DNA from: a virus
Length of the DNA stretch: 64,000 nt
IMG/VR virus record: IMGVR_UViG_3300013126_000011
Strand: one strand, 5' to 3'
The position numbers were made by a program, and so were the translations under genes. The notes beneath the pieces were generated by a model. It saw nothing but the letters and a program-made list of their open reading frames with translations, was not told the DNA's origin and did no database searches. Shown here in pieces: positions 8,194 to 51,625 of this stretch; positions within the stretch are counted from its first letter, which is position 1, and each line of letters starts with the position of its first letter.

Positions 8194-9243
8194 ATGCTTG
8201 TAAATAACCAAAATTCAGCTAAGGCATTGTTTGATGGCAGAATACAGTACAAGAATTGTATATATCCGTCTACTTTGGCAAAACCAATTGATTTTTGGTA
8301 TCTGAATCCGAATTATGGGTTTATTGACGTATATGGACACGTAATTTACCCAAACGAAGCACATTTCCGTCAAGTTTTCAGCAATAACGGACGAATTCAA
8401 CTAGCAATCGATTTTGTTGCAGAAGCTTTCAATGATTTCGCTGATTTCTACAATCAAGTTATTCAAACTGCAATTGGAACAGAGCGAGATATCAATAAAT
8501 CAAAGTTAGTAACTGTTCAGGCTCTAGCTGCTTGGACAAGTCCACACAAAGATTACAATTCGCATTGTACTGGCGTGTTTGCTGGAATTCAGAAGAAATA
8601 TACCAAACTGAACAAACCAGTCAGCTTTAGAGTGTTCTTAGAAGACTTTAAAGTGCTTGCTTCTCAGACTGCTCATACGATTCCGTATACTTTCATGGGT
8701 TATTTGTCTTCGCCTTATGTAGATCCAAAGAATACTGGGCTAATCATTGAAGTTTACAAAGATGCTCATGACGATGATCGAATAAAGCAGAATTTCTTGT
8801 CAGATCCAAATTTTGAGATGTTTGCGGATATTGCCGTTAAGCATGGTTTTGTAATCGACAAGAACGCACCGTGGAGACTCGTTGCAGATCTTAACTCTCC
8901 AGCCATGAAGCCATATCTTCAACAATACGGCATGAATTCTGCAAAAGACGTGTTCGTCCTTGATGGAGAAGGCAGATTCCTAGCCGTCGATCAAGTCAAT
9001 ATGGATACTTTCAGAAGATATCTTGTCGGATATTACAATTCAATTATGGCTGAAGATTCAAAGCCAGAACAAATCGATCTGAACGAGACAGAATGGATGG
9101 AACTGTATGTATTTGTTCGGCAATTGGAAAAGAATTTTAAGCCGCTTGACAACCCCTCCAAAGTGATCTATGATGCTGTTGTGCTGAAGGAAAAGTTTGG
9201 CGAGCAGTATGCGTCGGTGTTTCTAGAAAACTGCTTGAAATAG
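8194..9243 (+). CDS. Hypothetical protein
   Basis: 349-aa ORF in the operon; GFVIDKNAPWRLVADL segment; function not recognised. Confidence 0.5.
   Translation: MLVNNQNSAKALFDGRIQYKNCIYPSTLAKPIDFWYLNPNYGFIDVYGHVIYPNEAHFRQVFSNNGRIQLAIDFVAEAFNDFADFYNQVIQTAIGTERDINKSKLVTVQALAAWTSPHKDYNSHCTGVFAGIQKKYTKLNKPVSFRVFLEDFKVLASQTAHTIPYTFMGYLSSPYVDPKNTGLIIEVYKDAHDDDRIKQNFLSDPNFEMFADIAVKHGFVIDKNAPWRLVADLNSPAMKPYLQQYGMNSAKDVFVLDGEGRFLAVDQVNMDTFRRYLVGYYNSIMAEDSKPEQIDLNETEWMELYVFVRQLEKNFKPLDNPSKVIYDAVVLKEKFGEQYASVFLENCLK
9146..9174 (+). promoter_or_regulatory. Sigma70-type early promoter
   Basis: TTGACA-N17-TATGAT upstream of the PolA-like gene. Confidence 0.55.
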
Positions 9244-10434
9244 GTGGATTTGTTTTACTTTCAGGTTCTCGATTACAAAAAGCAATGCGCAGGGTTTTAT
9301 CTAGCCGATGGAACAATCAACAAATCATTGCCAGAAGGCATTTGTAGAACATGGAAGCCTTATTCTGTACTAAATTCAAGGCAAGATATCGAATATGCCT
9401 GGATTTTGGTTTCCGGAGCAGATCTCGATGAACATGTACCAGAGAATTTGCAAAAAGACTGGACAAGCGTAACAGATCTGTTGCGTTTGCATCTGAATAC
9501 TCTTAAAGTTGCCAGAGTGCCACTAAATGACGTTTGTTTGTATGAAGTACTGCCAACAGACATTTATTTGCGTTACTTTGACGTGTTGAATGCAATCACA
9601 GAAAGCATTTTTGATTCGAATTGTAAACCTCAAAATCATGACTTTCTCGTCAGAATCCAAGTGCTTTTGAGCGAGATTGAAGAACGAAAAGTCAAGTTAT
9701 CAACAAAGGGAGTCGATTTTACTTCAAAAGAGATTTCTCTCAAGAAAATTCAAGACATTTGTGCAAAAACCAATATCGTCAAGTACAATTTGTTTGGTAC
9801 GCGAACCGGTAGACTCACAAATACTGACGTTGGGTTGCCTGTGCTTACGATGGCAAAGCGATATCGAGGGTTGTTGCATCCAACGAACAATTGGTATGTC
9901 GAATTTGATCAAAATGGAGCAGATCTAAGAGCTTTGGTTGGATTGCTTAAGCAAGAACAACCAGAAGAAGATATTCACGCTTGGAACGCAAGCAAGATTG
10001 GTTGTTCCAGGGATGAAGCAAAGCAAAAGACGTTTTCTTGGTTGTATGATGGCAATAAGCGAGACATTAAGCTTGAAAAGCTCTATGACAAAGAAGTAAT
10101 TCTTGATCGAGTCTATCAATTTGATCGTATTATCACGCCGTTCAATCGAGAAGTATTGGCTGACTATGAACATGCTTTGAATTATGCTGCACAATCTACA
10201 GCAGCAGACGTATTCTATGATCGAACATTAGCTGTCAGAGAATATTTGAAGAGCATCAAAGCTAAGTCAGAGATTGCATTCTTAATGCATGATGCAATGG
10301 TTCTTGATTATGCGGATTCTGATGGAACGGAAGTCTTGACAAAATGTAAAGAGATTTTTGCCGATACTTTGTTTGGTGAATATCTGGTAAATGTCAGCGT
10401 TGGAAAAAACTACGGAGAAATGAGGAAACTGTAA
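9244..10434 (+). CDS. Short family A DNA polymerase (polymerase domain only)
   Basis: GTRTGRLT, motif A VEFDQNGADLR, motif B RDEAKQKTFSWLY, motif C MHDAMVLD. Confidence 0.75.
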   Translation: MDLFYFQVLDYKKQCAGFYLADGTINKSLPEGICRTWKPYSVLNSRQDIEYAWILVSGADLDEHVPENLQKDWTSVTDLLRLHLNTLKVARVPLNDVCLYEVLPTDIYLRYFDVLNAITESIFDSNCKPQNHDFLVRIQVLLSEIEERKVKLSTKGVDFTSKEISLKKIQDICAKTNIVKYNLFGTRTGRLTNTDVGLPVLTMAKRYRGLLHPTNNWYVEFDQNGADLRALVGLLKQEQPEEDIHAWNASKIGCSRDEAKQKTFSWLYDGNKRDIKLEKLYDKEVILDRVYQFDRIITPFNREVLADYEHALNYAAQSTAADVFYDRTLAVREYLKSIKAKSEIAFLMHDAMVLDYADSDGTEVLTKCKEIFADTLFGEYLVNVSVGKNYGEMRKL

Positions 10435-10829
10435 TGAAGTGGAAGTTTTGGAAGAAAGAGTCAATCAAAATTAACAAGCCAATCAAGTCAATGAAGCTTC
10501 GCACACTTGAGCTTTATAATACCCATGATGTATTGATTGGCGGTTTGAGAGAGAACGCCCCGAATACATTCCCAGAGTCTCAAATCGATTTTGAAAACAA
10601 AGAGAAAAAATCTACTATTGAAGATTTTCTTTTGTGGTGGAACAATCCGAACGGTTCTGCTTCTTATGTTTTTCACTATTATGATGGTTCTATGTGTATG
10701 ATTCGTCGTAAACAAATTTACTTTTTTCGTATTGTTGTTCGATTCGAAGATGTCGAAATGACTCGACAAGAGATCGAAGCAGCAATTAAAAAGACAGAAG
10801 AATTGGAAAAGATTCAAAATGTTCGATAA
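10434..10829 (+). CDS. Hypothetical protein
   Basis: Translationally coupled ORF. Confidence 0.45.
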   Translation: MKWKFWKKESIKINKPIKSMKLRTLELYNTHDVLIGGLRENAPNTFPESQIDFENKEKKSTIEDFLLWWNNPNGSASYVFHYYDGSMCMIRRKQIYFFRIVVRFEDVEMTRQEIEAAIKKTEELEKIQNVR

Positions 10830-21080: not shown

Positions 21081-22418
21081 ATGACAATTTTTGACAAGAA
21101 TGAGGTAAAAGCATATACGCTTGCTTACTTTGATAACGATTCTTTGGCAACTGATGTTTGGATGAGCAAATATGCTCTTCGAGATAAAGAGGGCAATTTT
21201 TTGGAGCTTTGTCCAGATGATATGTTTGCGAGAATCGCAAAAGAGTTTGCTCGCATTGAGCAAAAGTATTCAAACCCTATGTCGGAAGCTGAAATCTATG
21301 GTCTTATTCGTCATTTTCGATTTATTGTGCCTCAAGGTGGACCGCTTTATGGTATTGGCAACAATCATGGGTTAATGAGTCTTTCGAATTGTGTGGTCGT
21401 ATCACCTCCGAGGGATTCTGTGTCTGGGATTATGAATACCGGTCGCGACATTGCCAATCTTTACAAGTATCGTTGTGGAGTTGGAAACGATCTTGACAAT
21501 CTTCGTCCATGTGGCATGAGCGTTAATAACGCAGCAAAGACAACTACTGGAGCTTGGTCTTTTGCTGATTTTTTCTCCTATATTACTGGAATGATTGGTC
21601 AATCTGGCAGACGTGGAGCTTTAATGTTGTCTATGGGAATCAAGCATCCAGATATTGAAAAGTTTATCGATATGAAACGTACAAAGGGCAAAGTAGACAA
21701 CGCCAATGTTTCCGTTAAGCTTTTCAATGATTTTATGAATGCGGTGGTTGAAGATCGCGAATATATGCTATCTTGGAATGGATATGCAGAGCGAAAGGTG
21801 TCCGCAAAGCTTCTATTTGAGAAAATCTGCAAGGCAGCTTGTGATGAAGGAGAGCCGGGAATCTTGTTTTGGGACAACATTCTCAAGAGTGTTCCCTTGC
21901 AGTGTTACGCCGATGTAGGTTTCAATCATGTTGGTGTAAATCCATGTGTAACTGGCGATACAGTTGTGGATACAAATGGTGGTCAGAAAACAGTCAAAGA
22001 GTTATCTGACAATAAAGCTGTATTTTACGTTCAATCTTATAACGAAAAGACCGGACTAGTGGAACCTAAGAGAGCAACGGCATTTAAAACGAAAGATCGT
22101 GCTAAGATTTTGAAGATTAAAACGAAAGACGGAAAAAGTCTTCGTTTAACATCAGATCATCTAGTCTACACTAATCGTGGATGGATTAAGGCTGGCGAAC
22201 TTACAGTTGAAGATAAAATTTTGTCGATGCGGTCGAATGAATCCGTGTCACCTATTTATAATGTACACGGATTGGAGAACGAAAATGAAGCTATACAACT
22301 TGGAATTGGAAAAGAGCAAAATTCAGAAAATCAATACATTACTGGAAACAGTGTTTCCGAGTGCAACAAGCTTGTCGAACCATCGGGGGAACCGAAAAGT
22401 ACTTCGACAGTTTGTTGA
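21081..22418 (+). CDS. nrdJ: Class II ribonucleotide reductase N-fragment fused to split-intein IntN (Cys1 at 21945)
   Basis: SLSNCVV, GRRGALM, EPGILF, GVNP|CVTGDT (intein block A), LTSDHLVYT (block B). Confidence 0.9.
   Translation: MTIFDKNEVKAYTLAYFDNDSLATDVWMSKYALRDKEGNFLELCPDDMFARIAKEFARIEQKYSNPMSEAEIYGLIRHFRFIVPQGGPLYGIGNNHGLMSLSNCVVVSPPRDSVSGIMNTGRDIANLYKYRCGVGNDLDNLRPCGMSVNNAAKTTTGAWSFADFFSYITGMIGQSGRRGALMLSMGIKHPDIEKFIDMKRTKGKVDNANVSVKLFNDFMNAVVEDREYMLSWNGYAERKVSAKLLFEKICKAACDEGEPGILFWDNILKSVPLQCYADVGFNHVGVNPCVTGDTVVDTNGGQKTVKELSDNKAVFYVQSYNEKTGLVEPKRATAFKTKDRAKILKIKTKDGKSLRLTSDHLVYTNRGWIKAGELTVEDKILSMRSNESVSPIYNVHGLENENEAIQLGIGKEQNSENQYITGNSVSECNKLVEPSGEPKSTSTVC
22240..22277 (+). 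promoter_or_regulatory. Hairpin containing a late-promoter motif next to the endonuclease RBS
   Basis: AATCCGTGT (22240-22248) / ACACGGATT (22265-22273) flank CTATTTATA; GGAG follows. Confidence 0.6.
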
Positions 22419-23106
22419 TATTCCGGCGCTTGAAGTACATCGTTCAGAACTTAAAGTTTTGTTGTCGGAATTATATTTTGATAATCAGCTTGGATTTAAG
22501 TTGATTTTACGTGTATTGGAAAATTCTCATTTGTCGTATAGTAAACTGCGAAAGATTTTTGGGTATTTGGAAATAGATTTTCGTAAAGGTACGTCTGTAG
22601 TTACAGAACTTTTGCGAAGCGTAAGAAGTCAAAATGCGCTAGCAAAAGAGTGTCCCTTCGAGAATTGGCCAGAAAAACACCAAGATTGGCTGGTCGGTTC
22701 CTCCCGCGCAGCAAATGGATTTTATTATAATGCATCCAAAAAGAAATATGAATTTTTAAGAAGTAGTTATGAATTTGCATATGCAAAGTATCTTACTCTG
22801 GCTAACAAAAATTGGGGCGTCGAGGAAAGAACATATTTGTTGAATTCTGGTGCATATTATCGTCCTGATTTTTTCGTTTATGATCAAAATTGGACTTTGG
22901 AAAAAATCGTAGAAATTAAATCGATGTACAACTTTGAAGCGGCTCTAAGGCTGCAAAAATATTATGATTTTAAGCGGCAGTATCCAGAAATTACGACCGA
23001 AGTTTTGCTTGACAAGGAACTTTATGAGTTGATCGGAACATCTTATTGTAAGAATCTTCGGGAATGGAAAAGTGTTCGCAAGCATCTTGGGGAGATTAAA
23101 GAATGA
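22285..23106 (+). mobile_element. Free-standing PD-(D/E)xK homing endonuclease between split-intein halves
   Basis: RSSYEFAYAKYL, YRPDFFVY, IVEIKS; out of frame and overlapping both RNR halves; ATG 22285 after GGAG. Confidence 0.75.
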
Positions 23107-24749
23107 TGGTAGAGTTTATCGAGATTGAATCCATTGAAGACTGTGGCGAAGAAGCCGTATACGATTTGACTGTCGATGATAATCACAACTTTTTTGCAAA
23201 TGGACTTTTGGTGCATAATTGTTCCGAATTGGTATTATCCGCAGATGATGGTTGTCGTCTTATTACTATCAATCTTTCGTCGTTTGTCACTAATGACGAA
23301 TTTGATATGTTGCAGTTTGGGGAAGTCGTAAGACAAGCGCAGCGATTGTGTGACGATTTGATTGATCTGGAGATTGAAAAGCTTCAAGGGATTATCGACG
23401 CCAGTAATGAAGATGATGTTGAGCACGTTTTTAGTCGGCTAAAGAGATCTGCAATTGCAGGTCGCAGAACGGGATTGGGAGTCTTTGCGCTAGGTGATGC
23501 ACTTTTGAGAATGGGTCTAAGGTACGACAGCGATGAAGCTGTTGCTTTTGTTGATCAAATGATGAGTACGTTCAAGAACGCTGCATATATGTCTTCTGTT
23601 GCAATGGCAGAGGAACGCGGAGCATTTCCCGTTTGGGAGTGGAACAAAGAAAAAGATAATGAATTTTTGCTTGGGCTAGATCCCAAAGTTTATGAAAAGA
23701 TGAGTCAGGTTGGTCGTCGCAATGGCGCTTTGTTAACTATTTCTCCAACAGGTAGTGTAGCCATTGAAGCGAGAACAACATCAGGCATTGAACCAGTGTT
23801 TAGATTGGAATATGATCGTCGCAAGAAGCTTAATCCGGGTGATTCGGAGGCTCCAGACTATACAGACGAAAACGGAACATCGTGGAAGCACTATAGCGTT
23901 TATCATCCGTATGCACAAGAATATATGGTAAAAAACGGGCTTACTGATATTGCACAACTGCCATCGTATTTCGTGACTAGCGATCAAATCGATTATCATA
24001 AACGCTTGGCCATGCAAGCGGCTTGTCAGAGGCATATTGATCATCAGATTAGTTCAACAGTTAATCTACCACGCGGCACTACATGGCAAACAGTACGCGA
24101 CATTTACCTTGAAGCCTGGAAGGTTGGGCTGAAAGGCATTACTGTTTATGTTGATGGGTCTAGAGATGGAGTGTTGCTTACGAAGGGCGAGAAGACTGAA
24201 GCAAAATTCGTTCAGTGTGAAGCTCCAGCTAGACCAGAAAGATTGGAGTGTGAAATTCATCATCTTCAAGTGAAGAGCGAAAAGTGGACAATCTTGGTTG
24301 GCATGTATGATGGAAAACCATATGAGGTTTTTGGTGGCTTAAGTAGCAAGGTGCAGCTTCCAAAGAAGTCCGATCACGGCTTTGTGGTTAAGCATGTTAG
24401 AAAAACGGCAAAATCAACATATGATCTTGTGATTCCCGTAGGCGAAGGTGAATTGGTCATTCAAGACGTTGTTGACGTGTTTGACAATCCGACCAACCTG
24501 TCTCTATGTCGAATGATTTCTCTTAGTCTTCGTCAAGGTGCTTCAGTTGAACGAGTCGTTGAGCAACTTTTGAGAAGCGACAAAGAAGCTGATATGTTTA
24601 CCTTCTGTAAGGGTCTAGCTCGTTGTTTGAAGAAATATATCAAAGATGGCTCTGTTGCTGCTGGTGATGTTTGTCCAGAATGTCAATCGAAATTGATTTA
24701 TCAAGGAGGCTGCGTCCAGTGCAGCAGTTGTTCATACTCAAAATGTTGA
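23103..24749 (+). CDS. nrdJ: Split-intein IntC (39 aa) fused to class II RNR C-fragment
   Basis: VYDLTVDDNHNFFANGLLVHN|CSE; ISPTGS, SGIEP, ISSTVNLP, GLKGITVY; C-terminal CPEC...CSSC Zn ribbon. Confidence 0.9.
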   Translation: MMVEFIEIESIEDCGEEAVYDLTVDDNHNFFANGLLVHNCSELVLSADDGCRLITINLSSFVTNDEFDMLQFGEVVRQAQRLCDDLIDLEIEKLQGIIDASNEDDVEHVFSRLKRSAIAGRRTGLGVFALGDALLRMGLRYDSDEAVAFVDQMMSTFKNAAYMSSVAMAEERGAFPVWEWNKEKDNEFLLGLDPKVYEKMSQVGRRNGALLTISPTGSVAIEARTTSGIEPVFRLEYDRRKKLNPGDSEAPDYTDENGTSWKHYSVYHPYAQEYMVKNGLTDIAQLPSYFVTSDQIDYHKRLAMQAACQRHIDHQISSTVNLPRGTTWQTVRDIYLEAWKVGLKGITVYVDGSRDGVLLTKGEKTEAKFVQCEAPARPERLECEIHHLQVKSEKWTILVGMYDGKPYEVFGGLSSKVQLPKKSDHGFVVKHVRKTAKSTYDLVIPVGEGELVIQDVVDVFDNPTNLSLCRMISLSLRQGASVERVVEQLLRSDKEADMFTFCKGLARCLKKYIKDGSVAAGDVCPECQSKLIYQGGCVQCSSCSYSKC

Positions 24750-24811: not shown

Positions 24812-24820
24812 CTATTTATA
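24812..24820 (+). promoter_or_regulatory. Putative late promoter of the paralog array
   Basis: CTATTTATA upstream of GGAGG and TTG 24850. Confidence 0.55.
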
Positions 24821-36377: not shown

Positions 36378-38318
36378 TTGAGCAAGATCGATTTTGTAAA
36401 TCTTCACGTTCATACAAACGCTGGTTCTATTGGTGATGCCATTGGTTTTCCAAAGGATATCGCTGAACGGCTAATGAGTCAGGGTGTTAATGTTTGTGCG
36501 ATCACGGATCATGGGTCAGGAGCAGCTTATTCGCATGCCTATTTGACTCGTAAGGACATTCAGAAGCAAGGCAAGGACTTTCGATTCATCTATGGCATTG
36601 AAGCTTATTTTGTTGACTCTCTTGATGATTGGCACCAGAAGTACGCTGAAAATCAAGAAGCCAAGCTAACCGAAAAGAAGAAGCGCAAGAAGGCAGACGA
36701 TATTGTTGCTGATGCTGATGAAGCTTCGGTTGCAATTGAAGACGAAGAAGAAACTAAGAGTGCCAAGGGTCAAGCCAATCCTCTTAATCGCCGCTATCAT
36801 CTTGTGTTGCTGGCAAAGAATGAAGTCGGATACAAGAATCTTTGTCGTCTAATTTCAAAGTCTTATGAGCGCGAGAATTACTATCGATATCCAAGAATCG
36901 ATTATAAGATGCTGCAAGAACATTCAGAAGGGCTTGTTTGCTTGTCTGCTTGTATGGGATCGAGGCTTTCGAGAGCCATTCTTGACGGCAATCTAGAAGA
37001 TGCGAATAATGTCGTAGAAAAGCATAAGGCTATCTTTGGCAACAACTACTTTCTAGAAATGCAATGGAATGGTCTGCCAGAGCAGCATATCATCAATCCA
37101 ACTATCATTTCTCTGGCAGAAAAGCACAATCTCAAGCTTGTTAGCACGGTTGATGCACATTATCCCAATCCTGAGTTGTGGCAGACAAGAGAGCTTTACA
37201 AGCGTCTTTCTCGTATGTCTCAGGGAGCAAAAGAGATTGCTCCGCTTCCAGAAAAGATCGAAGATATGAAGTATATGCTCTATCCCAAGACGGGAGAAGA
37301 GATGTATGCAGATTTCAAGAAGTACAGTGCTGAAAACAATGTTGAATATGACGAATCCAAGGTTTTAGAGAGCTTCGCAAATACCGTCTATATTGCTAAT
37401 GAGCTTATTAGCGATTACACAATTGACACTAGTGTAAAGTTTCCTAGTTTCGTAATTGACGAGGGCAAGACAGCCATTGAGACTCTTTGTGCAAGAGCAG
37501 AAGAAGGAATTAAGAAGCTGTTTAATGGCAAGCTAAATGCAGAGTACCAGAAGCGCTTTGAATACGAGCTTTCTGTAATTGAAAAGAAAAACTTTGCTGA
37601 GTATTTTTTGCTGACTCAGCGGATCATGACTGAGAACAATAAGCGTTGGCTGGCTGGTCCTTCGCGCGGCTCTGCTGGTGGCTGTTTACTATCGTATCTG
37701 CTTGAGATCACTCAGATCGATCCGATCAAGTACGGTTTGCTGTTTGAACGTTTCCTTGATCCAGATAGCGATGGATATCCAGATATTGATTGTCTGGAAT
37801 CCACTCATTTAGTTTCTACTCCATCTGGCTCGTTGGCTATCTCCAAGTTGACAACTGGTTCAAAAGTATATGATCATTTGGGAAATGTTCGAAAAGTATT
37901 ACACGTTCAAACGAGAGCGAGAAAAGAGAGCGAAGGCGTTTATAATATCTACGTGAAGCATCGGAATACAGTTGGATTAATCATTGCTAGCGAAGATCAT
38001 CGCTTGTTGAATCAAAATGGAGCGGAAATTTTCGTAAGGGATTTGGAAGTTGGAAATAGAGTTTGGTCAAACCTAAAAGAGCCCATTGTTGTTGTACAAA
38101 TCGAACCAAATTTTGATGAAAAGTTGTTTTTTACGGACATTACTGTAGAAAAAACCTCTACGTTCGTATTTTATCCTTTTGATGTGATCATTTTGGAGTC
38201 CGATGAAGGGCGTTTCGTATCCTGTGTCCCTATCTATAATATAGACTTAGATGTAGAGGGGATATACAATGAGTTACAGCAAAATAGATTTGCAAGAGTT
38301 ACAGAGTGGTGTACGTGA
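36378..38318 (+). CDS. dnaE: DNA polymerase III alpha N-fragment (PHP domain) fused to split-intein IntN (Cys1 at 37791)
   Basis: LHVHT, AITDHG, GIEAY, HLVLLAKN, DAHY, RGSAGG, LLFERFL, PDID|CLESTH; ASEDHRL (intein block B). Confidence 0.9.
   Translation: MSKIDFVNLHVHTNAGSIGDAIGFPKDIAERLMSQGVNVCAITDHGSGAAYSHAYLTRKDIQKQGKDFRFIYGIEAYFVDSLDDWHQKYAENQEAKLTEKKKRKKADDIVADADEASVAIEDEEETKSAKGQANPLNRRYHLVLLAKNEVGYKNLCRLISKSYERENYYRYPRIDYKMLQEHSEGLVCLSACMGSRLSRAILDGNLEDANNVVEKHKAIFGNNYFLEMQWNGLPEQHIINPTIISLAEKHNLKLVSTVDAHYPNPELWQTRELYKRLSRMSQGAKEIAPLPEKIEDMKYMLYPKTGEEMYADFKKYSAENNVEYDESKVLESFANTVYIANELISDYTIDTSVKFPSFVIDEGKTAIETLCARAEEGIKKLFNGKLNAEYQKRFEYELSVIEKKNFAEYFLLTQRIMTENNKRWLAGPSRGSAGGCLLSYLLEITQIDPIKYGLLFERFLDPDSDGYPDIDCLESTHLVSTPSGSLAISKLTTGSKVYDHLGNVRKVLHVQTRARKESEGVYNIYVKHRNTVGLIIASEDHRLLNQNGAEIFVRDLEVGNRVWSNLKEPIVVVQIEPNFDEKLFFTDITVEKTSTFVFYPFDVIILESDEGRFVSCVPIYNIDLDVEGIYNELQQNRFARVTEWCT
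38223..38266 (+). promoter_or_regulatory. Hairpin with late-promoter motif sequestering the endonuclease RBS
   Basis: TGTGTCCCT(A)TCTAT can pair with GTAGAGGGGATATA; CTATCTATA at 38230-38238; ATG at 38269. Confidence 0.55.
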
Positions 38319-39369
38319 GTTAACTCGTGAAGAGTGTATTCGCTACATAAACGAAAAGACTGGTTTTAAGATGTGTGCTGAAGAATCGTATTACGACGAA
38401 ATTCGAAAACATCTTAAAAATATCAATTGTTGTTCAATGTCGCTAAACAACATTTCAAATGCGGATTTCGTATCTTTTTTGGATGAAGGCGGAATTAAGG
38501 TTATCGCAAAACCAGAGGAATTCGAGGTTGTACTTTTTGGAGGATGGAGACAGCAATTAAAACATCAAAATCACGGACTGATTCGGATCGTACAAACATC
38601 TCTTATGCACTTTCAATGTCCCGCGTGTGGAAAAAAGATTGTTGCTGATATGAACCCTTCGAGAAGAAAGGAGTTTTCTCTTTGTGAACAGTGTTTCAAG
38701 GCTGTATATTACTTGTCTGAGGAATACCGCCAAAAATATAATGCTGAGATGATCAAAAAATACGGAGAAACAAGTCCGATACGAATTCCCCACATAAGAA
38801 AAAAGATTCGATCAACAATGATAGAACGTTATGGTGTACCCTTCTCTGGTATGAATCCAGAGTTGCTGGAAAAGACGTGGACTACTACAGAGAAGAAGTG
38901 TGGTCGAAGAAATCGGTTTACTGGTCTAGATTGTATTGAATTGTATGGTCCTCGCTCTCATTATTGTGTTTCAAAGCTAGAAGTCGAAATAGCAGAAAAG
39001 ATTCATGAGGTTCTTGACGATAAATATATCATTCGTTCTAATGCTCACAAAAACATGAGAGCGTTTTTTCTTTCTGAAAAGAACGTCCTTGGAAAAAAGC
39101 GCTATATTTTTCCTGATATTTTTATCGAAGAGAAGAAACTGATCATTGAGATTTTTGGAGATTATTGGCATGCTAACCCAAGTGTTTTCTCCAAAGAGCA
39201 TATCTTTACCGGAGGTAGAACTATGGAAGAGATTCATAAAAAAGATAGAAGTAGAATTGAAAGTTTGAGTGTCGACGGTATTAAAGTATATGTTGTATGG
39301 GAAAAAGATTGGCGCGAAGACAAAGAGAGAGTTTTTAAGGAAATTTTGAAGACCGTTGAGGAAGCATGA
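38269..39369 (+). mobile_element. Free-standing Vsr-like homing endonuclease between DnaE intein halves
   Basis: CPAC..CEQC Zn ribbon, KKYG/ERYG repeats, VSKLE, FPDIFIEEKKLIIEIFGDYWH, VVWEKDW. Confidence 0.8.
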
Positions 39370-41480
39370 AAACACTTTACTGTAGTTCGTTTTTAACAAA
39401 GAATATCACGGTCGGTTCTCATAATTGCGATGTCGAAGAGCCAATGGCTTTGAAGGAATTGTTGACTGAAGAATGGAAGCGTCTGCACAATATCGACGTT
39501 GTGCCTGTCAGCAACTTTACGACATTCCAAATTCGCAATCTAATCAAGGACGTATCCAAGTTTTTTGATGTACCTTTTGAAGAAGCCAATAACGTAACCA
39601 ATGTGATGCTGAACGAAGCTATTCCAAAGATCAAGGAAAAGCGTGGGATCAAGACTGGTGTATTGATTGGTGATGACGCTCCAACGACCGAAGAAGTAAT
39701 GGAGTTTTCTGAAACTCTTCAAAAATTCCTCAAGAAGTATCCTGTTGTTGCAAAGCAAATTGAATTTCTACAGGGTCAATATAAGAACGCCAGTCGTCAT
39801 GCCTCTGGTTGTATTATTGCTGAAAACCTAGCAGATCGTATGCCAATTTTTATGTCTGGTGGTGTTCGTCAAACACCGTGGACAGAAGGAATTGCTGGTC
39901 GGCATCTGGAACCAATGGGTTTTGTCAAGTTTGATATTCTTGGGCTTGCAACGCTTCGAACCATTCGTGATACTGTGTCTCGTATTTTGCAGAAGCAAGG
40001 AACTGACAATCCAACATTTGAACAAATCAAAACGTATTATGAAAGTCTGTTGCATCCTCGTAAGATCGATTTCGACGATCAAGAGGTTTGGAAGAGCATC
40101 TTTCATGATGGTCGTTTCATGGGCATTTTCCAGTTTGCTCAGAAAGGCGCTCAAGCTTTGTGCAGGGCGACCAAACCAACCTGCATTGATGATTTGTCGG
40201 CTGTAACTGCCATTTATCGTCCGGGTCCATTGGCTGCTGAGTTTGATAAGCAGTATATTCATTATCGAAATCATCCAGAAGAAATCGAGTATGTTCATCC
40301 AATCGTTGAACAAAACCTCAAGGCTTCGATGGGCATGGTTATCTATCAGGAAGATATTACTCGTCTTGTGTGCTCTCTTGGAGAAAACATTTCATTTGCC
40401 GAAGGTAACAAGCTTCGCAAGGTTCTTGTCAAGAAGGGAATTGGAAAAAATCAGGAATTTAAAGACAAAATCAAGACGAAGTTTATCGCTGGTTGTGACA
40501 AGAAAAACATTCAAGTAGATAAAGCTGAAGAACTTTGGCAAGTGCTTGAAAATACTGCGCAGTATTTGTTTAATGCGAGTCATTCGAAAGGATATTGTGT
40601 AATTTCATACATTTGTGCGTACTTGCTTCGTTATCATCCTGATCAGTGGGTTGCAGCATTTTTGGAGCGTGAACAGGACGACGACGATAAGAAAAACATT
40701 AGTCTTTCGCTAGCTCGTAATGACGGGTACAGTATTGATAACGTCGACATCAACACGTCAGGGCTTAGATGGGAAATCAGTGCTATGGCTCCAAAAACCC
40801 TTGTTCCGCCTCTTTCGAGCATTAAGGGCATTGGTGATGCAGCCATTGATGAGATCGTTCAATTTCGACCATTTGCGTCGATTTCTGAGCTATTGTTTCA
40901 TCCAACTATGAGCTATCGAAAGGTTAATAAGCGAGTGCTTGACGTTCTGGTTCGTGGAGGTGCTTTGAAGAGTTTGATGGATCAACGGTTTGTAAATTTG
41001 AAGCATTTTTGGGCTTCTGTGGTTGCCAATAGACCAACAAACGAAGAAGAACTAGCAACTAATATTGAAGCATTCAAAAATGAAAAAGATTTTAGCCGCG
41101 ATGAACGCATCGAATTCAAGCGCTCATTGACGGGATTGTTCCCAATTGAGGCTGTGATTGCTCCAGCCACGATCCGCGCTTTCTGGAACGTTGATTGTGC
41201 TCCTATGGGAGAGTTTAGCGAAGTTGACACTTTTGACACTTGTTGGGGAATCCCTCTTAGTGTTGAAGTCAAGACTAGCCAAAAGGGCAAGAAATTCCTT
41301 ATGGTTAAGTGCATCGATTCGACCTATAAACAATCGATTGTTCGGATTTGGTCGGCAAAAGAATCAGATGCAGAAAAGATTCAATTAAATCGAGTGTATA
41401 TTTTCAAAGCGTCATATAATTCTCAGTTTGGTTTCTCTTTGTTTGGGATGAACGGAATGAAATTTCTTGGAGTAATGTAG
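39366..41480 (+). CDS. dnaE: 20-aa IntC fused to DNA polymerase III alpha C-fragment
   Basis: MKTLYCSSFLTKNITVGSHN|CDVEE; SRHASG, KFDILGL, GIFQF, YRPGP, IYQE, FNASHS, IKGIG. Confidence 0.9.
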   Translation: MKTLYCSSFLTKNITVGSHNCDVEEPMALKELLTEEWKRLHNIDVVPVSNFTTFQIRNLIKDVSKFFDVPFEEANNVTNVMLNEAIPKIKEKRGIKTGVLIGDDAPTTEEVMEFSETLQKFLKKYPVVAKQIEFLQGQYKNASRHASGCIIAENLADRMPIFMSGGVRQTPWTEGIAGRHLEPMGFVKFDILGLATLRTIRDTVSRILQKQGTDNPTFEQIKTYYESLLHPRKIDFDDQEVWKSIFHDGRFMGIFQFAQKGAQALCRATKPTCIDDLSAVTAIYRPGPLAAEFDKQYIHYRNHPEEIEYVHPIVEQNLKASMGMVIYQEDITRLVCSLGENISFAEGNKLRKVLVKKGIGKNQEFKDKIKTKFIAGCDKKNIQVDKAEELWQVLENTAQYLFNASHSKGYCVISYICAYLLRYHPDQWVAAFLEREQDDDDKKNISLSLARNDGYSIDNVDINTSGLRWEISAMAPKTLVPPLSSIKGIGDAAIDEIVQFRPFASISELLFHPTMSYRKVNKRVLDVLVRGGALKSLMDQRFVNLKHFWASVVANRPTNEEELATNIEAFKNEKDFSRDERIEFKRSLTGLFPIEAVIAPATIRAFWNVDCAPMGEFSEVDTFDTCWGIPLSVEVKTSQKGKKFLMVKCIDSTYKQSIVRIWSAKESDAEKIQLNRVYIFKASYNSQFGFSLFGMNGMKFLGVM

Positions 41481-41491
41481 GCTAAAACTGC

Positions 41492-41520
41492 TTGACAATC
41501 AAGCTTGGTTGAGCTATACT
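41492..41520 (+). promoter_or_regulatory. Sigma70-type early promoter for the dUTPase-macrodomain-SH3 cluster
   Basis: TTGACA-N17-TATACT. Confidence 0.7.
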
Positions 41521-42098: not shown

Positions 42099-42554
42099 AT
42101 GCCAAGTATCAATCTTCAGGGAGATCTATTGCTATCTGATTGCAATTGTTTTGCCCACTGTTGCAACTGTTTTTGTCAGATGGGTTCTGGAATTGCCAAG
42201 TCAATTCGTGCAAAATGGCCAGAAGTATATCAGGCTGACTTCTTTACTCCGAGAGGTGACAAGCGAAAGTTAGGAACATTCAGCAAAGCAACTGTCGATG
42301 ATAACAAGCTAGTCTATAATCTTTACGGACAATTCAAGGCTGATGCCAGCAGTCGACAACTTGATTATCAAGCTTTTGAAGATGCTCTCAAGGCAATGAG
42401 GCAAGATTTGATCGATCTTGGAATTTACAAGACTTGCAAGCTTGGTTTGCCCTACAAAATCGGATGCGGTTTGGCAGGCGGCGATTGGACTGTAGTTTCT
42501 GAAATCATCAATAAGGTGTTTGTCGATAAGGCAATCTACATTTACAGGCAATAG
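42099..42554 (+). CDS. Macrodomain ADP-ribose hydrolase (Poa1/DarG-like)
   Basis: GDLL, HCCNCFCQMGSGIAK, NLYGQ, PYKIGCGLAGGDW. Confidence 0.85.
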   Translation: MPSINLQGDLLLSDCNCFAHCCNCFCQMGSGIAKSIRAKWPEVYQADFFTPRGDKRKLGTFSKATVDDNKLVYNLYGQFKADASSRQLDYQAFEDALKAMRQDLIDLGIYKTCKLGLPYKIGCGLAGGDWTVVSEIINKVFVDKAIYIYRQ

Positions 42555-42971
42555 ATGATCTTCAAAGAAGGTGATCAGGTAATTATTCAGGCTGGTACGT
42601 GGACTTATCCATATGAACTGCAACCGTTGCCAATTAGTTTTCATACAAACAACAATACTAGTTCTGCTGGTGTTGGTCAAGTCACTGGACCTACCTTTAA
42701 AAAGTTGAAAGCTAAATGGACAGTAGAATCGGGATATGATCATCTGGAATCTGATCGACCGGCAATTTTCATTAGACTTCATGAGAAGCAAGAACATGAA
42801 GCTGTTGTTCTGTTGATCGATGAAGCAAAGCTTGTGGTTGTAGCAAATGATCAGCTTATCAAGTACGTGGAGGGCGATGTTCTTCGAGAAAACGTAATCC
42901 CCAAGGGTGAACAAAATCTATATGCTATTCATGGAGAAAGAGCTTTCGAGACAATTTGCAAACGACATTGA
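42555..42971 (+). CDS. SH3-like protein carrying major-capsid-protein-like segments (KLKAKWTVE; QNLYAIHG)
   Basis: Scaffold FKEGDQVII...AIFI...VVLLIDEAKLVVV..DQLIKY is shared with the next two ORFs. Confidence 0.6.
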   Translation: MIFKEGDQVIIQAGTWTYPYELQPLPISFHTNNNTSSAGVGQVTGPTFKKLKAKWTVESGYDHLESDRPAIFIRLHEKQEHEAVVLLIDEAKLVVVANDQLIKYVEGDVLRENVIPKGEQNLYAIHGERAFETICKRH

Positions 42972-43000
42972 TAACAATATTCTGAATTCTTTATCTGCAT

Positions 43001-43411
43001 ATGTCATTAATCACAACAGAGAAGAACCGGCAGAATCAGTTGAACCAGTTGAAATTAACTCGAAGATTGTTGGACGATAAAGCGTTTAATCCTGGCGATA
43101 TTGTTGAAATATCTGATTTGGCAGTATTAAATAATAGAAAACAATACGAGATTCAACCAGCGTCAAATTTAAATGGATATGTTTATGCGCCATATATTCC
43201 ACTAGTAGTTTCGCAAATGATTGCCTTCGAAAAACAATATCGTAAGGCAATTTATATTGAACCTTTCTTGTCAAAATGGTCGAAAGGGGAAGATCTATCT
43301 TTGGTGCTTCTTTTGGATGATGGTGAAATTTATGTAGTTAAAAAATCGGAGTTAAAAGAATATGTCGAGCAACAGATTTGTTCCTGGCCAAACAGTTGCA
43401 ATTGCAGCTAA
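43001..43411 (+). CDS. SH3-like protein carrying capsid-like segment GYVYAPYIPL
   Basis: FNPGDIVEI...AIYI...LVLLLDDGEIYVV..SELKEY scaffold. Confidence 0.6.
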   Translation: MSLITTEKNRQNQLNQLKLTRRLLDDKAFNPGDIVEISDLAVLNNRKQYEIQPASNLNGYVYAPYIPLVVSQMIAFEKQYRKAIYIEPFLSKWSKGEDLSLVLLLDDGEIYVVKKSELKEYVEQQICSWPNSCNCS

Positions 43412-43970
43412 TGCAATGTTGCATGATGTAGAGATTGAACGCCAACGAGAAGAGACATATAAATGCTTTTTAAAAAGTCCATTAATGAACGGAATTACTG
43501 GTCCAAAAGATCGGCAGCTAATAGCAAAACTTTTAGCTAATCAAGCTAGTGCGCTGAACAACAATAATAGTTTTGGGTCAACTGGAAGCCTTTCCAAATT
43601 TACAATGCCGACAGTAAGGCGAGTGTTTCCTAATTTGATGGCAAACGATCACGAAGAATCAGAAACACTGGCAATCTATGTTGATGAGTATTTCCCAGGC
43701 GATTATTCAAGCGCAATGGCTAACGCAATCGTAACTGTTAAAACTGTTCGTTGGGCATTAGTTCTTTTGATCGATGAAGCAAGAAGCGTATATGTTAGAG
43801 AAGACGATCTTCGAGAATACAAATCAGATGGCAGCGATCAGCTAAAGACGGAGCATATCCAAGGTCTTATGAGCGTTCAGCCAATGTCTGCACCATCAAG
43901 CTTACTTTTCTATATGGACAGTTATACTGGCAGTCATAATGTTCTTGACAACCAAGACAAAGTAGAGTAA
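43362..43970 (+). CDS. SH3-like protein carrying capsid N-terminal/Gol-like segments
   Basis: IAKLLANQ, VRRVFPNLMAND and SVQPMSAPSSLLFYMD placed in and after the FVPGQTVAI...AIYV...LVLLIDEARSVYV..DLREY scaffold. Confidence 0.65.
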   Translation: MSSNRFVPGQTVAIAANAMLHDVEIERQREETYKCFLKSPLMNGITGPKDRQLIAKLLANQASALNNNNSFGSTGSLSKFTMPTVRRVFPNLMANDHEESETLAIYVDEYFPGDYSSAMANAIVTVKTVRWALVLLIDEARSVYVREDDLREYKSDGSDQLKTEHIQGLMSVQPMSAPSSLLFYMDSYTGSHNVLDNQDKVE

Positions 43971-44029: not shown

Positions 44030-44416
44030 ATGGGGTTCGCGAAAAAATTCCGTAGGCAGAAGTTCTTGGAAGCTAAGGCGAATATGCAATCGACTGTTGG
44101 AGATAAAATGATGTTTTTTGATCGCATTCCTGATAAATGCGATGTATGTCAAAAACCATTCAATAAAAAGGATAAGCAGCAAGTGTCAACTTGGTTTGTA
44201 ACTGTTAGAGCAGACAAGAAAACTGTTCATTTGTTCTGCCCTGATTGTATGGCAAAGACTCAACGAATTCTTGAACCTCTTGTTGGTGATGGCAAGGGAA
44301 TCAAGGAAGCAACATTAACAGAAGATGGAAAGCTTGAGATTAAGAGCGAACAAAGCGAGCCAGTCGAAGTGAACATGTTCAGCGTACCGGTCGAGGTGCC
44401 AGTTGAAAATTCTTGA
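44030..44416 (+). CDS. Zn-finger hypothetical protein
   Basis: CDVC...CPDC. Confidence 0.5.
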   Translation: MGFAKKFRRQKFLEAKANMQSTVGDKMMFFDRIPDKCDVCQKPFNKKDKQQVSTWFVTVRADKKTVHLFCPDCMAKTQRILEPLVGDGKGIKEATLTEDGKLEIKSEQSEPVEVNMFSVPVEVPVENS

Positions 44417-47359: not shown

Positions 47360-47932
47360 ATGCCCAAGAAGGCTGTGAGTGTTGTTGAGCCTCAAGTTGT
47401 CGGTGTCGTTTGGAAGCAATACGATCTTGATAATGGAAGGGGTTCTCACTACGTCCTTCAACTAGAAAACATTGAACAACGAGAGCTTAACCGTATCAAG
47501 CTTGATTGTTGTCCCAAGTGGAATTATACTGGTTGGGGAACGTGCAAGAACGGTAAGTTGATGTTGATTTATGCCAGGGATTTTGTTTCTCTCAAAGAAC
47601 TGTCTGAATGGACAAAGCAGTTTGGCTATCCGGTATCTCTTCTGAAGCCTGAAAGGGCATCTAAGATCAAGCAAGAAAATGAAGATGGGACTGAACAAGT
47701 TGTCAAGATTGTTGTAAAGTCTAAATTGGTGAAGCTTCCTGGCAAGAAGAAGGAAGCGACAAAGCCGATTGAGCCTGTCAAGAAGAACAAGCTTGATAGA
47801 AACGTTCTTTTCAAGAAGCGCAATGTTGCTGTCAAGGCAGTCAACAGTGAACGCAAGCAATACGTTTGCTCTGTTTGTGGTCAACTTGGACATAATTCGC
47901 GTACATGCTCACACAAGGAGAAAACATTTTGA
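47360..47932 (+). CDS. Basic protein with C-terminal CCHC zinc knuckle
   Basis: CSVCGQLGHNSRTC. Confidence 0.6.
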   Translation: MPKKAVSVVEPQVVGVVWKQYDLDNGRGSHYVLQLENIEQRELNRIKLDCCPKWNYTGWGTCKNGKLMLIYARDFVSLKELSEWTKQFGYPVSLLKPERASKIKQENEDGTEQVVKIVVKSKLVKLPGKKKEATKPIEPVKKNKLDRNVLFKKRNVAVKAVNSERKQYVCSVCGQLGHNSRTCSHKEKTF

Positions 47933-48606
47933 CAAATCGAAAACATAAAATTGAAGAAGAGCCTGAAGACTTTGATTTAGACGAAGAAGATGAAGGATAT
48001 TGTGCAACACAATTTAACGCTGATGCTTTAGAACAGAGAACGATTTTTCTTTGTGGTATCATCAGTGGAAATAATGGTCCTGCTGCTGTCAATGCGCTAC
48101 TAAGCTTTTATGAAGCCGAGAAAGCCAGAATTGATCGATATCGTAAGGAAGTGCCAGAAAATGAAGCGCAAGAAGAGTTTCTGAAGTTTCGTCCTGTTAA
48201 GTTTTTCATCAATTCTGGTGGTGGAAATGCCGACGATATGTTTGCAATTTGCGACACAATGGAGTACGTACAAAAGCAAGGACTTCCAGTACATACAATC
48301 GCGCTAGGTAGTGCAAAGAGTGCAGCGATTCCTATCTTGGCATATGGTACAAAAGGTGAGCGTTATGCTGGTCGTCATACACGTTTTATGTTACATTCAA
48401 TTGGCGGAACAGGTTCAGGCGCTCTAGGCGATATTCTTCTAGATGTAAAAGAACTTGAATGGGCACAAGAAAACTATATTCAAATGACATTGGAGCGCTC
48501 AAATTTGACAAAGAAGTTTCTCAAGAAGATTGTTTCCAGTAATACAAATCACTATTTTGATGTCAACGAGGCTCTAAAGTTTGGAATCATCGACAAGATC
48601 TATTAG
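47929..48606 (+). CDS. clpP: ClpP-like protease subunit
   Basis: RTIFLCG, FINSGGG, GSAKSAA (Ser), RFMLH (His), EALKFGIIDKI. Confidence 0.8.
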   Translation: MTNRKHKIEEEPEDFDLDEEDEGYCATQFNADALEQRTIFLCGIISGNNGPAAVNALLSFYEAEKARIDRYRKEVPENEAQEEFLKFRPVKFFINSGGGNADDMFAICDTMEYVQKQGLPVHTIALGSAKSAAIPILAYGTKGERYAGRHTRFMLHSIGGTGSGALGDILLDVKELEWAQENYIQMTLERSNLTKKFLKKIVSSNTNHYFDVNEALKFGIIDKIY

Positions 48607-49653: not shown

Positions 49654-49988
49654 TGCACCATATTGATCTGTGCGAAGCCTATAAGAACAAAGAAAAGTAC
49701 ATCACTGTAGATTACTTAGATTACGAAAGCGAAGATATTCGAGAACATAATGGGTTTTATTATCGAGTCTATCGTTGTTTCGCTGTCATCAATGGCGATT
49801 GTAATAAGTCCTGGTTAGTCAAGAGAGCTAATGCCAAAGAAGGTTGGGTAGAATTAGTAATCGAAAAAGATGATCCGCGAGACATTACCGATCACGAAAT
49901 CATAAAAGGTGAAATCGTAATTTTTCCGCTAAACGTTAATGGCGAATATTTCCCAATTGATTACAAGCAAAACGGAGTTGTTGAATGA
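49653..49988 (+). CDS. Hypothetical protein
   Basis: Coupled ORF. Confidence 0.4.
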   Translation: MHHIDLCEAYKNKEKYITVDYLDYESEDIREHNGFYYRVYRCFAVINGDCNKSWLVKRANAKEGWVELVIEKDDPRDITDHEIIKGEIVIFPLNVNGEYFPIDYKQNGVVE

Positions 49989-51625
49989 GCAAGCAATTAC
50001 AGTGTTTTGATGAAGAGCTTCGAAGCAAGTCTCTCAACGCTTCCAGAAAGCTAGCAAAAATCGTTGGCTCTACGCTAGGTCCGAGAGGAAGAAACGTAAT
50101 CCTTCACGGTGATGGAAGAAGTCCGATTATCACAAAAGATGGTATTACAATTTCTCGTGTTGTCCAGTTTGATGATCCTGCCGAGCAAACCGCTGCCAGC
50201 ATAATCAAACAAGCGGCAGAAAGTACCTCAAATGACGCCGGAGATGGCACTACAACGACGACGGTGTTAGCAGATGCAATCTTGCAACAGGCAAGCAAGC
50301 ATATCGCTAGAAACGTGTCTCCCGTTGAAATTAAGAAGGGAATCGATCTGGCAGTCAGAACGGTTGTGACAGAGATTGAGCAGGTTGCTCGATCCATTGA
50401 AACCATTGAAGATGTTGAGAACGTAGCTACAATTTCTGCCAATAACGATAAGGTGATTGGAAAACTAGTTGCCAAAGCCATTGAGGCTGCTGGTAGGGAT
50501 GGAGTTGTTACAATCGAAGAGTCTCGAAGCGTAGAGACAACCATTGATGCTCTAGAAGGTTTTCGCTTTGATTCTGGATATTTATCAAACGCATTTATCA
50601 CAGATGAACGTCGAAAGCTAGTACGCTATGAAAACGTAAGAGTAATGGTCACTGATTATGATCTGTCCGAGGCAATGCAAATCAAGAACGCAGCAGAGTT
50701 GATTGCTCGTGATAACAAGCCTCTTCTTGTTATTGCCAATGAAGTAGAAGGAAAAGCACTTGCTGCTTTGGTTGCAAATGCTCTTCGAGGATCACTAAAG
50801 GTTGTTGCAGTAAAGGCTCCCAGGTATGGCGAGGAACGTCGTGATATCCTTGAAGATCTTGCTATTGCCACAGGAGCAAAATACTTTCGAAGAGACAAAG
50901 GTGATCTTTTAGAAGATATTCAGTTGATTGATTTTGGTATTGTAAAGACAATCGAGATTGATAAACACAATACCACGCTGATTGGTACTGGCGGAAAACA
51001 AGAAGCAATCGAACAAAGACTAGCCGATATTAAAGCTTTGTATGAAGCTGCAACGGAACCAGTCAATGCAGAAATGTATCATCAAAGAATGATTCGAATG
51101 AACGGTGGTGTTGTTGTCATTCGTGTTGGTGGTTCAACTGAAGTAGAAATGATTGAGAAGAAACATCGCATTGAAGATGCTCTGGAAGCTGTCAAGGCTG
51201 CACAAGCTTTGGGTGTTGTTCCCGGTGGTGGTTGTACTTTGGCAAAGATCGCTTGTAATTTACAGAAATCGAGAAACTCTGTAAATTCATTAATCACAAA
51301 AGAACAGCAGCTAGGTTATTATGCTCTTTTGGAAGCTTGTTATGCTCCAATTCTAAAGATGGTTGAGAATGCAGGCTTGAAGTCATATAACGTTATTCCG
51401 CATCTTCTGAGAACCAGCAAGAGAACGTGGTATGGAACAAAGAGAGTTGATACACATAGTCCAAATTTGGGATATGATTTCCTAAGTGAAGAATTTGTTG
51501 ATATGTATTCGAAGGGAATTATTGATCCTGCAAAGGTTGTAATTTTTGCTTTGCGTAATGCTGCAAGTGCTGCAAGCGCGCTATTAACTGCTGATGTAGC
51601 TTTGATTGAGGAAGGAAAAGAATAA
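49985..51625 (+). CDS. groEL: Phage chaperonin GroEL-like
   Basis: TLGPRGRNV, ITKDG, AGDGTTT, FDSGY, KAPRYG, IEDAL, VPGGG, IIDPAKV. Confidence 0.93.
   Translation: MSKQLQCFDEELRSKSLNASRKLAKIVGSTLGPRGRNVILHGDGRSPIITKDGITISRVVQFDDPAEQTAASIIKQAAESTSNDAGDGTTTTTVLADAILQQASKHIARNVSPVEIKKGIDLAVRTVVTEIEQVARSIETIEDVENVATISANNDKVIGKLVAKAIEAAGRDGVVTIEESRSVETTIDALEGFRFDSGYLSNAFITDERRKLVRYENVRVMVTDYDLSEAMQIKNAAELIARDNKPLLVIANEVEGKALAALVANALRGSLKVVAVKAPRYGEERRDILEDLAIATGAKYFRRDKGDLLEDIQLIDFGIVKTIEIDKHNTTLIGTGGKQEAIEQRLADIKALYEAATEPVNAEMYHQRMIRMNGGVVVIRVGGSTEVEMIEKKHRIEDALEAVKAAQALGVVPGGGCTLAKIACNLQKSRNSVNSLITKEQQLGYYALLEACYAPILKMVENAGLKSYNVIPHLLRTSKRTWYGTKRVDTHSPNLGYDFLSEEFVDMYSKGIIDPAKVVIFALRNAASAASALLTADVALIEEGKE

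Follow-up and report, generated by a model that had tools for sequence, protein, structure and literature searches.

What kind of genes does a phage keep when three small open reading frames (ORFs) in a row each appear to join the same little domain to a different piece of a major capsid protein (MCP), and what might they be for? The question is raised by ORF1, ORF2 and ORF3, which lie between positions 42555 and 43970 of IMG/VR record IMGVR_UViG_3300013126_000011, a stretch of 64,000 nucleotides (hereafter, the window) that is part of an uncultured phage of ~166 kb from JGI and Logan metagenome assemblies. An earlier reading of the bare sequence (the original prediction) described them as tandem paralogs on a shared SH3-like scaffold, each with a different gp23-type capsid fragment, and proposed that they act as capsid decoys or as dominant-negative poisons of head assembly in competing phages. 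The three are co-oriented genes in one gene block, referred to here as the trio, and their parts are laid out as follows, with S1 denoting the first strand of the scaffold and S2 its second half.

42555-42971, plus strand: ORF1, 138 amino acids
42555-42602, plus strand: scaffold strand S1 of ORF1
42693-42740, plus strand: first MCP segment of ORF1, equivalent to MCP residues 339-353
42741-42872, plus strand: scaffold half S2 of ORF1
42906-42935, plus strand: second MCP segment of ORF1, start only
43001-43411, plus strand: ORF2, 136 amino acids if read from ATG 43001, although TTG 43067 or 43070 may be the true start
43082-43126, plus strand: S1 of ORF2
43166-43228, plus strand: MCP segment of ORF2, equivalent to MCP residues 518-534
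43229-43372, plus strand: S2 of ORF2
43362-43970, plus strand: ORF3, 202 amino acids, with GGAG 11 nucleotides before ATG 43362
43371-43418, plus strand: S1 of ORF3
43434-43649, plus strand: N-terminal MCP segment of ORF3, equivalent to MCP residues 17-91
43650-43826, plus strand: S2 of ORF3 including an extra loop, then a linker
43863-43946, plus strand: second MCP segment of ORF3, equivalent to MCP residues 90-118

Local similarity to the capsid protein, both to the phage's own MCP and to gp23-type profiles, was found in all three ORFs. The MCP gene of this phage lies ~14 kb upstream of the window (L017:1665-3371) and encodes a protein of 569 amino acids (P0150) that matches T4 gp23 structures with E ~3e-26; immediately downstream of the gene come a homing-endonuclease gene of the GIY-YIG/NUMOD3 type and another NUMOD3 ORF (L017:1665-4393). 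Compared by BLASTP with this MCP, ORF1 gave E = 3e-4 and shares the identical 8-mer KKLKAKWT, ORF2 gave E = 2e-5, and ORF3 gave E = 7e-9 and 6e-7. When a hidden Markov model (HMM) of 13 diverse gp23-type proteins was searched against 2,961 six-frame pieces of the window, ORF3, ORF2 and ORF1 ranked first, second and third (E = 1e-14, 0.039 and 2.8, respectively); a narrow HMM of 120 close Vibrio-phage relatives found ORF3 only, and the diverse one was needed for the others. The matches cover positions ~8-110 (ORF3), ~403-418 (ORF2) and ~227-240 (ORF1) of the 461 in the profile. ORF3 also matches phrog_138 (major head protein) with E = 8e-7 and Pfam Gp23 (PF07068) with E = 0.0015 and a score of 18.5, below the cut-off of 24.4, and a HMMER search with it among 1.84 billion representatives returned mostly gp23-type N-termini, at 40-50% identity over ORF3 residues ~25-96. 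Two further records from that search, P0126 and P0130, proved to be repeat-rich chance matches, and a phmmer search of the PDB with ORF3 gave no capsid match. The homology is thus to conserved MCP blocks, with none of the three spanning the full PF07068 or phrog_138 profile, and because they hold fragments only, the trio proteins are not capsid proteins.

The segments run out of order, as had been predicted, with a middle (MCP 339-353), a C-terminal (518-534) and an N-terminal piece (17-118) in successive genes. The accompanying claim that in two of the ORFs a contiguous capsid segment is split by a scaffold half stands fully for ORF3, in which profile positions 8-85 and 86-110, contiguous in the profile, flank an insert of 72 residues; in ORF1 the insert likewise separates positions 223-234 from 235-245, but of these the latter match only weakly in the window phage. 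The split does fall at D-H-x-E-S in both window ORFs, but this motif is not conserved in the second phage described below. Over the capsid-like stretches, 48 residues are identical to those of the phage's own MCP, only 20 of them with the same codon, and nucleotide identity is 61%. Since the codons differ from those of the MCP gene, the likeness has been kept by selection at the protein level and not by recent copying, and recent gene conversion from the MCP gene was ruled out as its source. Also ruled out were a foreign MCP clade as the source of the fragments, the clade of the phage's own MCP being the best or equal match, and an MCP origin of the N-terminal scaffold strand (with linker) itself, for which shuffle tests gave z < 2.

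The remainder of each protein is shared among the three. In BLASTP comparisons within the trio, ORF1 and ORF3 matched with E = 1e-6, ORF2 and ORF3 with E = 1e-3, and ORF1 and ORF2 with E = 0.43. Scaffold HMMs were then built with one family left out at a time and searched against 4,399 six-frame pieces; in each case the left-out window ORF was the best match outside the training set (E = 9e-5, 8e-6 and 5e-4). A fourth copy of the scaffold was found neither within the window nor in the preceding 29 kb, and L012, the related contig, has none either. An AlphaFold2 model of ORF1 residues 1-108, calculated from the six available sequences, had a mean predicted local distance difference test score (pLDDT) of 72.7, with block means of 76-90 for residues 1-20 and 61-108 and values below 60 for residues 21-60, which hold the capsid peptide; for the capsid insert itself pLDDT is below 50. 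Its strands (residues 8-11, 16-19, 68-75, 82-87, 92-97 and 101-103) agree with the 5-6 strands and ~60 residues of the SH3-like small-barrel fold, and superposition by VIA onto PWWP, KOW and Tudor domains gave Z of 7.5-8.5 with a root mean square deviation of ~2 Å over ~57 residues, the best being Z 8.5 and 1.9 Å over 57 residues.

Searched against the PDB with Foldseek, the model returned top rows that were mostly of SH3, Tudor or PWWP type, none of them significant (E of 0.1 or worse); its best match in BFVD was an uncharacterized 96-amino acid viral protein (E = 4e-4). ESM Atlas models of ORF1 and ORF2 agree with the AlphaFold2 model and have small viral proteins, Tudor, SH3_3, DUF3104 and WYL as neighbors. 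A model of ORF3 from two sequences reached a pLDDT of 29.7. Searches of Pfam, PHROG and NCBIfam assigned the scaffold to none of the curated families of SH3, Tudor or KOW domains, and the nearest candidate, Pfam DUF3006, scored 13.3 and 14.2 bits (E = 0.05-0.1), below its gathering cut-off of 32.3 bits. An intein or split intein was considered and rejected: the scaffold has only ~60-65 residues versus ~130 for a Hint domain, the junction is D|H, there is no conserved Cys/Ser or His-Asn, and the structural matches are to SH3-like and not to Hint folds. The recovery of each ORF by the HMMs, together with the SH3/Tudor/KOW-like model of ORF1, bears out the predicted paralogy on an SH3-like scaffold. 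As modeled, the barrel is SH3/Tudor/KOW-like and consists of an N-terminal strand (F-x-x-G-[DQK]-x-V-x-[IV]) and a C-terminal half of 45-60 residues; the first capsid piece sits in the predicted low-confidence loop between the two, and the second is attached at the C-terminus through a linker of ~15 residues. Taking in strand S1 requires that ORF3 start at ATG 43362, so that it overlaps ORF2 by 50 nucleotides; the database gene call begins at 43416 and leaves S1 out.

Alignment of the phage's own MCP to T4 gp23 shows where the pieces would lie in the capsid fold. The piece in ORF3 runs from the propeptide through the N-arm into the beginning of the first E-loop strand and contains the counterpart of the Gol region, which we place at residues ~93-122 of T4 gp23. 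Its insert, made up of a half barrel and a linker, falls between the equivalents of T4 D110 and I111, inside the Gol-equivalent block, and the same split is found in the second phage; the residues of the ~29-residue Gol stretch are therefore present in ORF3 but not contiguous. ORF3 VRRVFPNLMAND ... SVQPMSAPS corresponds to T4 VRRAIPNLIAFDICGVQPMNSP, with the difference that the ORF3 copy stands outside the capsid gene, is probably made early and is split by 72 residues. Gol is described as the most conserved part of gp23 and as the EF-Tu-binding trigger of the Lit protease, and ~100 N-terminal residues of gp23 bind EF-Tu more stably (PMC3014915). The ORF1 piece is the strand that returns from the insertion (I) domain, which in T4 sits in the E loop (PMC9958956), together with the start of the long spine helix, and the ORF2 piece is a strand ~50 residues from the MCP C-terminus that we assign to the P-domain. 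Having neither an A-domain nor an I-domain, the trio proteins cannot form an HK97 fold alone. In that fold, the three carried elements presumably pack together at the base of the E loop and the P-domain.

A second phage carries the same trio. The sole non-capsid relative of ORF3 (P0129) is encoded on L012, a 38-kb Logan contig that is syntenic with the window (polymerase III alpha, dUTPase and macrodomain, then IMPDH-like, sigma-r4, ClpP and Cpn60 genes), and there the three genes follow each other in the same order with overlapping junctions (L012 positions 9204-9674, 9667-10017 and 10001-10534). Each ortholog shares its scaffold and its kind of capsid piece with its window counterpart; that of ORF2 matches the MCP of the window phage with E = 3e-12, and the tail of that of ORF1 aligns ungapped with MCP residues 361-387 (z = 5.9; 2 of 2,000 shuffles reach the score). 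The two phages share 89% identity in the neighboring IMPDH-like protein versus 23-34% in the trio proteins, and their flanking DNA is 67-81% identical whereas the DNA of the trio cannot be aligned. Through this divergence runs such as GYVYAPYIP, RRVFP and VQPMS are invariant, while the linkers are 9-15% identical, and all ORFs have stayed open at lengths of 116-202 codons, which argues strongly for function and upholds the view that the trio is not a decayed capsid gene. The comparison indicates that the capsid segments are old and have been kept at the protein level. Aligned over the scaffold only, paralogs of one genome score at least as high as orthologs (63-77 within the window versus 39-62), whereas the capsid inserts follow orthology; these six sequences hint at concerted evolution of the barrels while the inserts keep their identity.

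One part of the original prediction, that the reading frames are intact, did not survive. The in-frame tail of ORF1 in the window has no likeness to MCP, and the expected continuation is found in the +1 frame after a break at GGA GAA AGA G (~42934):

42934-43080, plus strand: +1-frame continuation of ORF1 (ELSRQFANDIDNNILNSL...), a putative remnant spine-helix mimic, open for 48 codons

This stretch matches the in-frame C-terminus of the L012 ortholog of ORF1 (E = 0.007) and aligns to MCP register 369-386, although not significantly by itself. The break is present in all assemblies, including L001 and L002 (JGI), which are 100% identical to the window, and the 138-amino acid product is recorded in both JGI and Logan assemblies. 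No known slippery motif that would point to a programmed +1 frameshift was seen at GGA GAA AGA G, and the break is most simply explained as a recent one-base insertion that removed the helix-mimic tail in the window phage. At 43080, where the stretch ends, ORF2 would be translationally coupled; since the ORF2 ortholog begins directly at S1, ORF2 probably starts from TTG 43067 or 43070, if ORF1 once reached that far.

The genes around the trio suggest when it is expressed and in what company. The predicted early-type promoter at 41492 is a good sigma-70-like site, and the macrodomain gene said to adjoin the trio does so without a gap, its stop codon abutting the start of ORF1 (TAG ATG):

41492-41520, plus strand: candidate sigma-70-like promoter TTGACA-17-TATACT, 11 of 12 consensus matches, upstream of the dUTPase-macrodomain-trio operon
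42099-42554, plus strand: DarG/TARG1(OARD1)-type macrodomain gene, phrog_335 with E = 1e-46

Between positions 24818 and 46219 there is no candidate late motif (CTADTTA), and no terminator-like site was seen inside the gene block; expression of the trio is likely early. The macrodomain matches OARD1/C6orf130 macrodomains of the PDB with E ~2e-7 and the macrodomain part of NCBIfam DarG with E = 1e-7, the latter far below the equivalog cut-off. Enzymes of the DarG/TARG1 class take ADP-ribose off proteins and nucleic acids, and the protein is a candidate eraser of ADP-ribosylation by host defense toxins. In L012, the macrodomain gene and the trio are separated by a Dam-family methylase gene (L012:8662-9207), and upstream there is a UDG gene; neither has a counterpart in the window. 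The small protein encoded after the trio (44030-44416) has weak zinc-ribbon Pfam matches below cut-off, and its L012 counterpart, at 192-212 amino acids, has a long acidic C-terminal extension.

The wider gene set is T4-like, with UvsX, DnaB, a split ribonucleotide reductase, a sheath protein, a gp13-like neck protein, ClpP (47905-48606) and a Cpn60/GroEL-like chaperonin (49985-51625), the last two conserved in L012. DNA polymerase III alpha (36378-41480) is split into parts of 646 and 704 amino acids by a 366-amino acid endonuclease-like ORF (phrog_3339, DUF7487), whereas in L012 it is unsplit, a single gene of 1,154 amino acids (L012:2823-6287). The large subunit of ribonucleotide reductase (21081-24749) likewise consists of two ORFs with a 309-amino acid ORF (22177-23106) between them.

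Beyond these two phages, the databases searched gave no match to the trio architecture. A blastn search with the region found no match among 50,697 phage records, and tblastn searches with ORF1 and ORF2 of these isolate genomes, which include more than 2,500 records with a gp23-type MCP match, gave chance matches only. An exact-pattern scan of viral contigs returned nothing, and a word index of 5.8 billion clusters, queried with ORF3, yielded no relative besides the second trio and none of greater length. By exact look-up, ORF1, ORF2, ORF3 and two of the orthologs all fall in clusters of 1-2 members. Neither the trio nor any capsid fragment was present at the distant loci examined that have the IMPDH-like gene, 60 of them viral and one from a metagenome, and a search of the literature on phage capsid mimics or decoys turned up no example. 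The interleaved order of barrel strand, capsid piece, barrel half and capsid piece, arisen three times, is not explained by simple insertion.

Conserved structural proteins, which a phage can alter only with difficulty, are often what bacterial immunity detects. Lit senses gp23 through the Gol peptide together with EF-Tu (PMC3014915), and the CmdC chaperone of CmdTAC, a system that ADP-ribosylates mRNA, senses newly made Gp23, and escape mutants in gp23 could not be isolated (PMC11618068). For a TAC chaperone, the ligand is a stretch of 30 residues from a tail protein that is incompletely folded (bioRxiv 10.1101/2024.02.24.581848). Because hosts read nascent or conserved segments of structural proteins in these ways, we rank a counter-defense role first and tentatively read the trio as a non-activating antagonist of a capsid sensor, a proposal that we consider possible and still short of probable. 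Its basis is circumstantial, namely fast divergence with retained motifs, display in a flexible loop and the neighboring gene. The barrels would be inert display scaffolds and the capsid peptides the working parts, held in a flexible, unfolded-like state; made ahead of the real MCP, they would mimic nascent or unfolded MCP segments and occupy the factor that recognizes these, most likely the sensor of a capsid-triggered abortive infection system, either of Lit/Gol type or with a chaperone as sensor, as in CmdTAC. The half barrel amid the Gol-equivalent block could allow binding without activation, and the DarG/TARG1-like macrodomain might add a second layer by removing ADP-ribose marks. A bolder version, to which we give little credence, has the barrels join the three chains into a miniature of the E-loop base and P-domain, a "split capsid epitope" of two sheet strands, the start of the spine helix and the N-arm/Gol region, with this antagonist and the macrodomain forming a two-layer cassette against systems of the CmdTAC kind; the barrels do look homogenized within each genome.

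Several observations weigh against counter-defense. Binding of gp23 elements activates Lit and CmdTAC, so a plain mimic would trigger the sensor and do harm, and for antagonism something further has to be assumed. Only two phage populations are known to carry the family; the capsid segments are not uniformly the best conserved parts, the first piece of ORF1 being 25% identical between the phages; and the frame break suggests that, at the least, the helix-mimic tail of ORF1 is dispensable in the window phage or decaying.

The proteins could instead be directed at the phage's own capsid. The trio would then help or regulate the folding or assembly of its own MCP, by pairing with the nascent chain or competing for EF-Tu or the chaperonin and thereby holding the MCP back or guiding it until the prohead machinery is in place. 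The capsid segments match the clade of that MCP best or equally well, and they come from elements read as packing together at the E-loop base and P-domain; 4-8 kb downstream the phage has ClpP and Cpn60 genes of its own, and the Gol region has been proposed to bind EF-Tu for the translation or folding of gp23 (PMC3014915). We nevertheless hold this to be rather unlikely, as the trio shares an early-type operon with genes of nucleotide metabolism and is not part of the head module, its absence from the 50,697 isolate genomes means that it is not a general requirement, it diverges much faster than would be expected of a partner of the slowly evolving MCP, and ORF1 is truncated in the window phage. 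The location of the operon, far from the head genes and with no late motif nearby, also makes it improbable that these are minor virion or prohead-targeted proteins whose MCP pieces dock the barrels on the scaffolding core or capsomers, an idea that draws on the counterpart in ORF3 of the gp23 propeptide, which T4 removes by cleavage (PMC9958956); the propeptide copy is, however, internal and not N-terminal.

The likely early expression and fast evolution would also suit weapons against competing phages, in which gp23 fragments made early act as dominant-negative poisons of head assembly when another T4-like phage co-infects or superinfects; the carried segments are blocks conserved across the whole gp23 family. 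The motifs fit foreign MCPs no better than the phage's own, so that self-poisoning would have to be avoided, and no mechanism of discrimination is visible; we judge this account no likelier than docking on the prohead. Least probable in our estimate is that the genes have no function and are what is left of an old MCP duplicate that broke up, became mixed with a repeated gene for a small barrel and is now drifting. The frame break in ORF1, the very fast divergence and the very narrow distribution all fit such a history, but drift would hardly leave the ORFs open in two phages whose trio DNA is unalignable, with gene order and overlapping junctions kept, nor would it retain capsid motifs and barrel core residues while linkers drift; synonymous sites are scrambled and amino acids kept, and the fold could be predicted from six sequences.

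If the counter-defense reading is right, the trio would answer capsid sensing in a new way, by presenting the capsid's most conserved segments on neutral scaffolds; alternatively, the trio would represent a new way to control capsid folding. Whatever its function, the unusual architecture, a half barrel inside a contiguous capsid segment, repeated with three different segments and kept in two phages while all else drifts, makes a clean study system. It can help to show what reads short capsid peptides in an infected cell, which of them are read, and how such chimeric genes arise, and the three genes are small and lend themselves to synthesis and testing.

Compared with the gp23-type MCPs (PF07068, phrog_138; T4 gp23, PDB 5VF3/7VS5), the inserts are homologous to three blocks, whereas the trio holds only ~100, 50 and 30 residues of the protein, in separate and non-collinear chains. 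CmdTAC, HigBAC-type TAC and CapRel show that immunity reads conserved or nascent segments of structural proteins (PMC11618068; bioRxiv 10.1101/2024.02.24.581848); those are host systems, whereas the trio is encoded by the phage. Its predicted fold is that of the small SH3, Tudor, KOW and PWWP barrels and of uncharacterized phage proteins of 57-105 residues, but unlike in the small barrels the loop after the first strands holds a foreign insert of 40-75 residues. Viral mimics and decoys include the phage DNA mimic Ocr, the poxvirus pseudosubstrate K3L and filovirus sGP. The logic proposed for the trio is the same, a non-functional look-alike that occupies a host factor; unlike these, the trio would copy a structural protein of the virus itself, as linear peptides and in three complementary pieces held on a scaffold.

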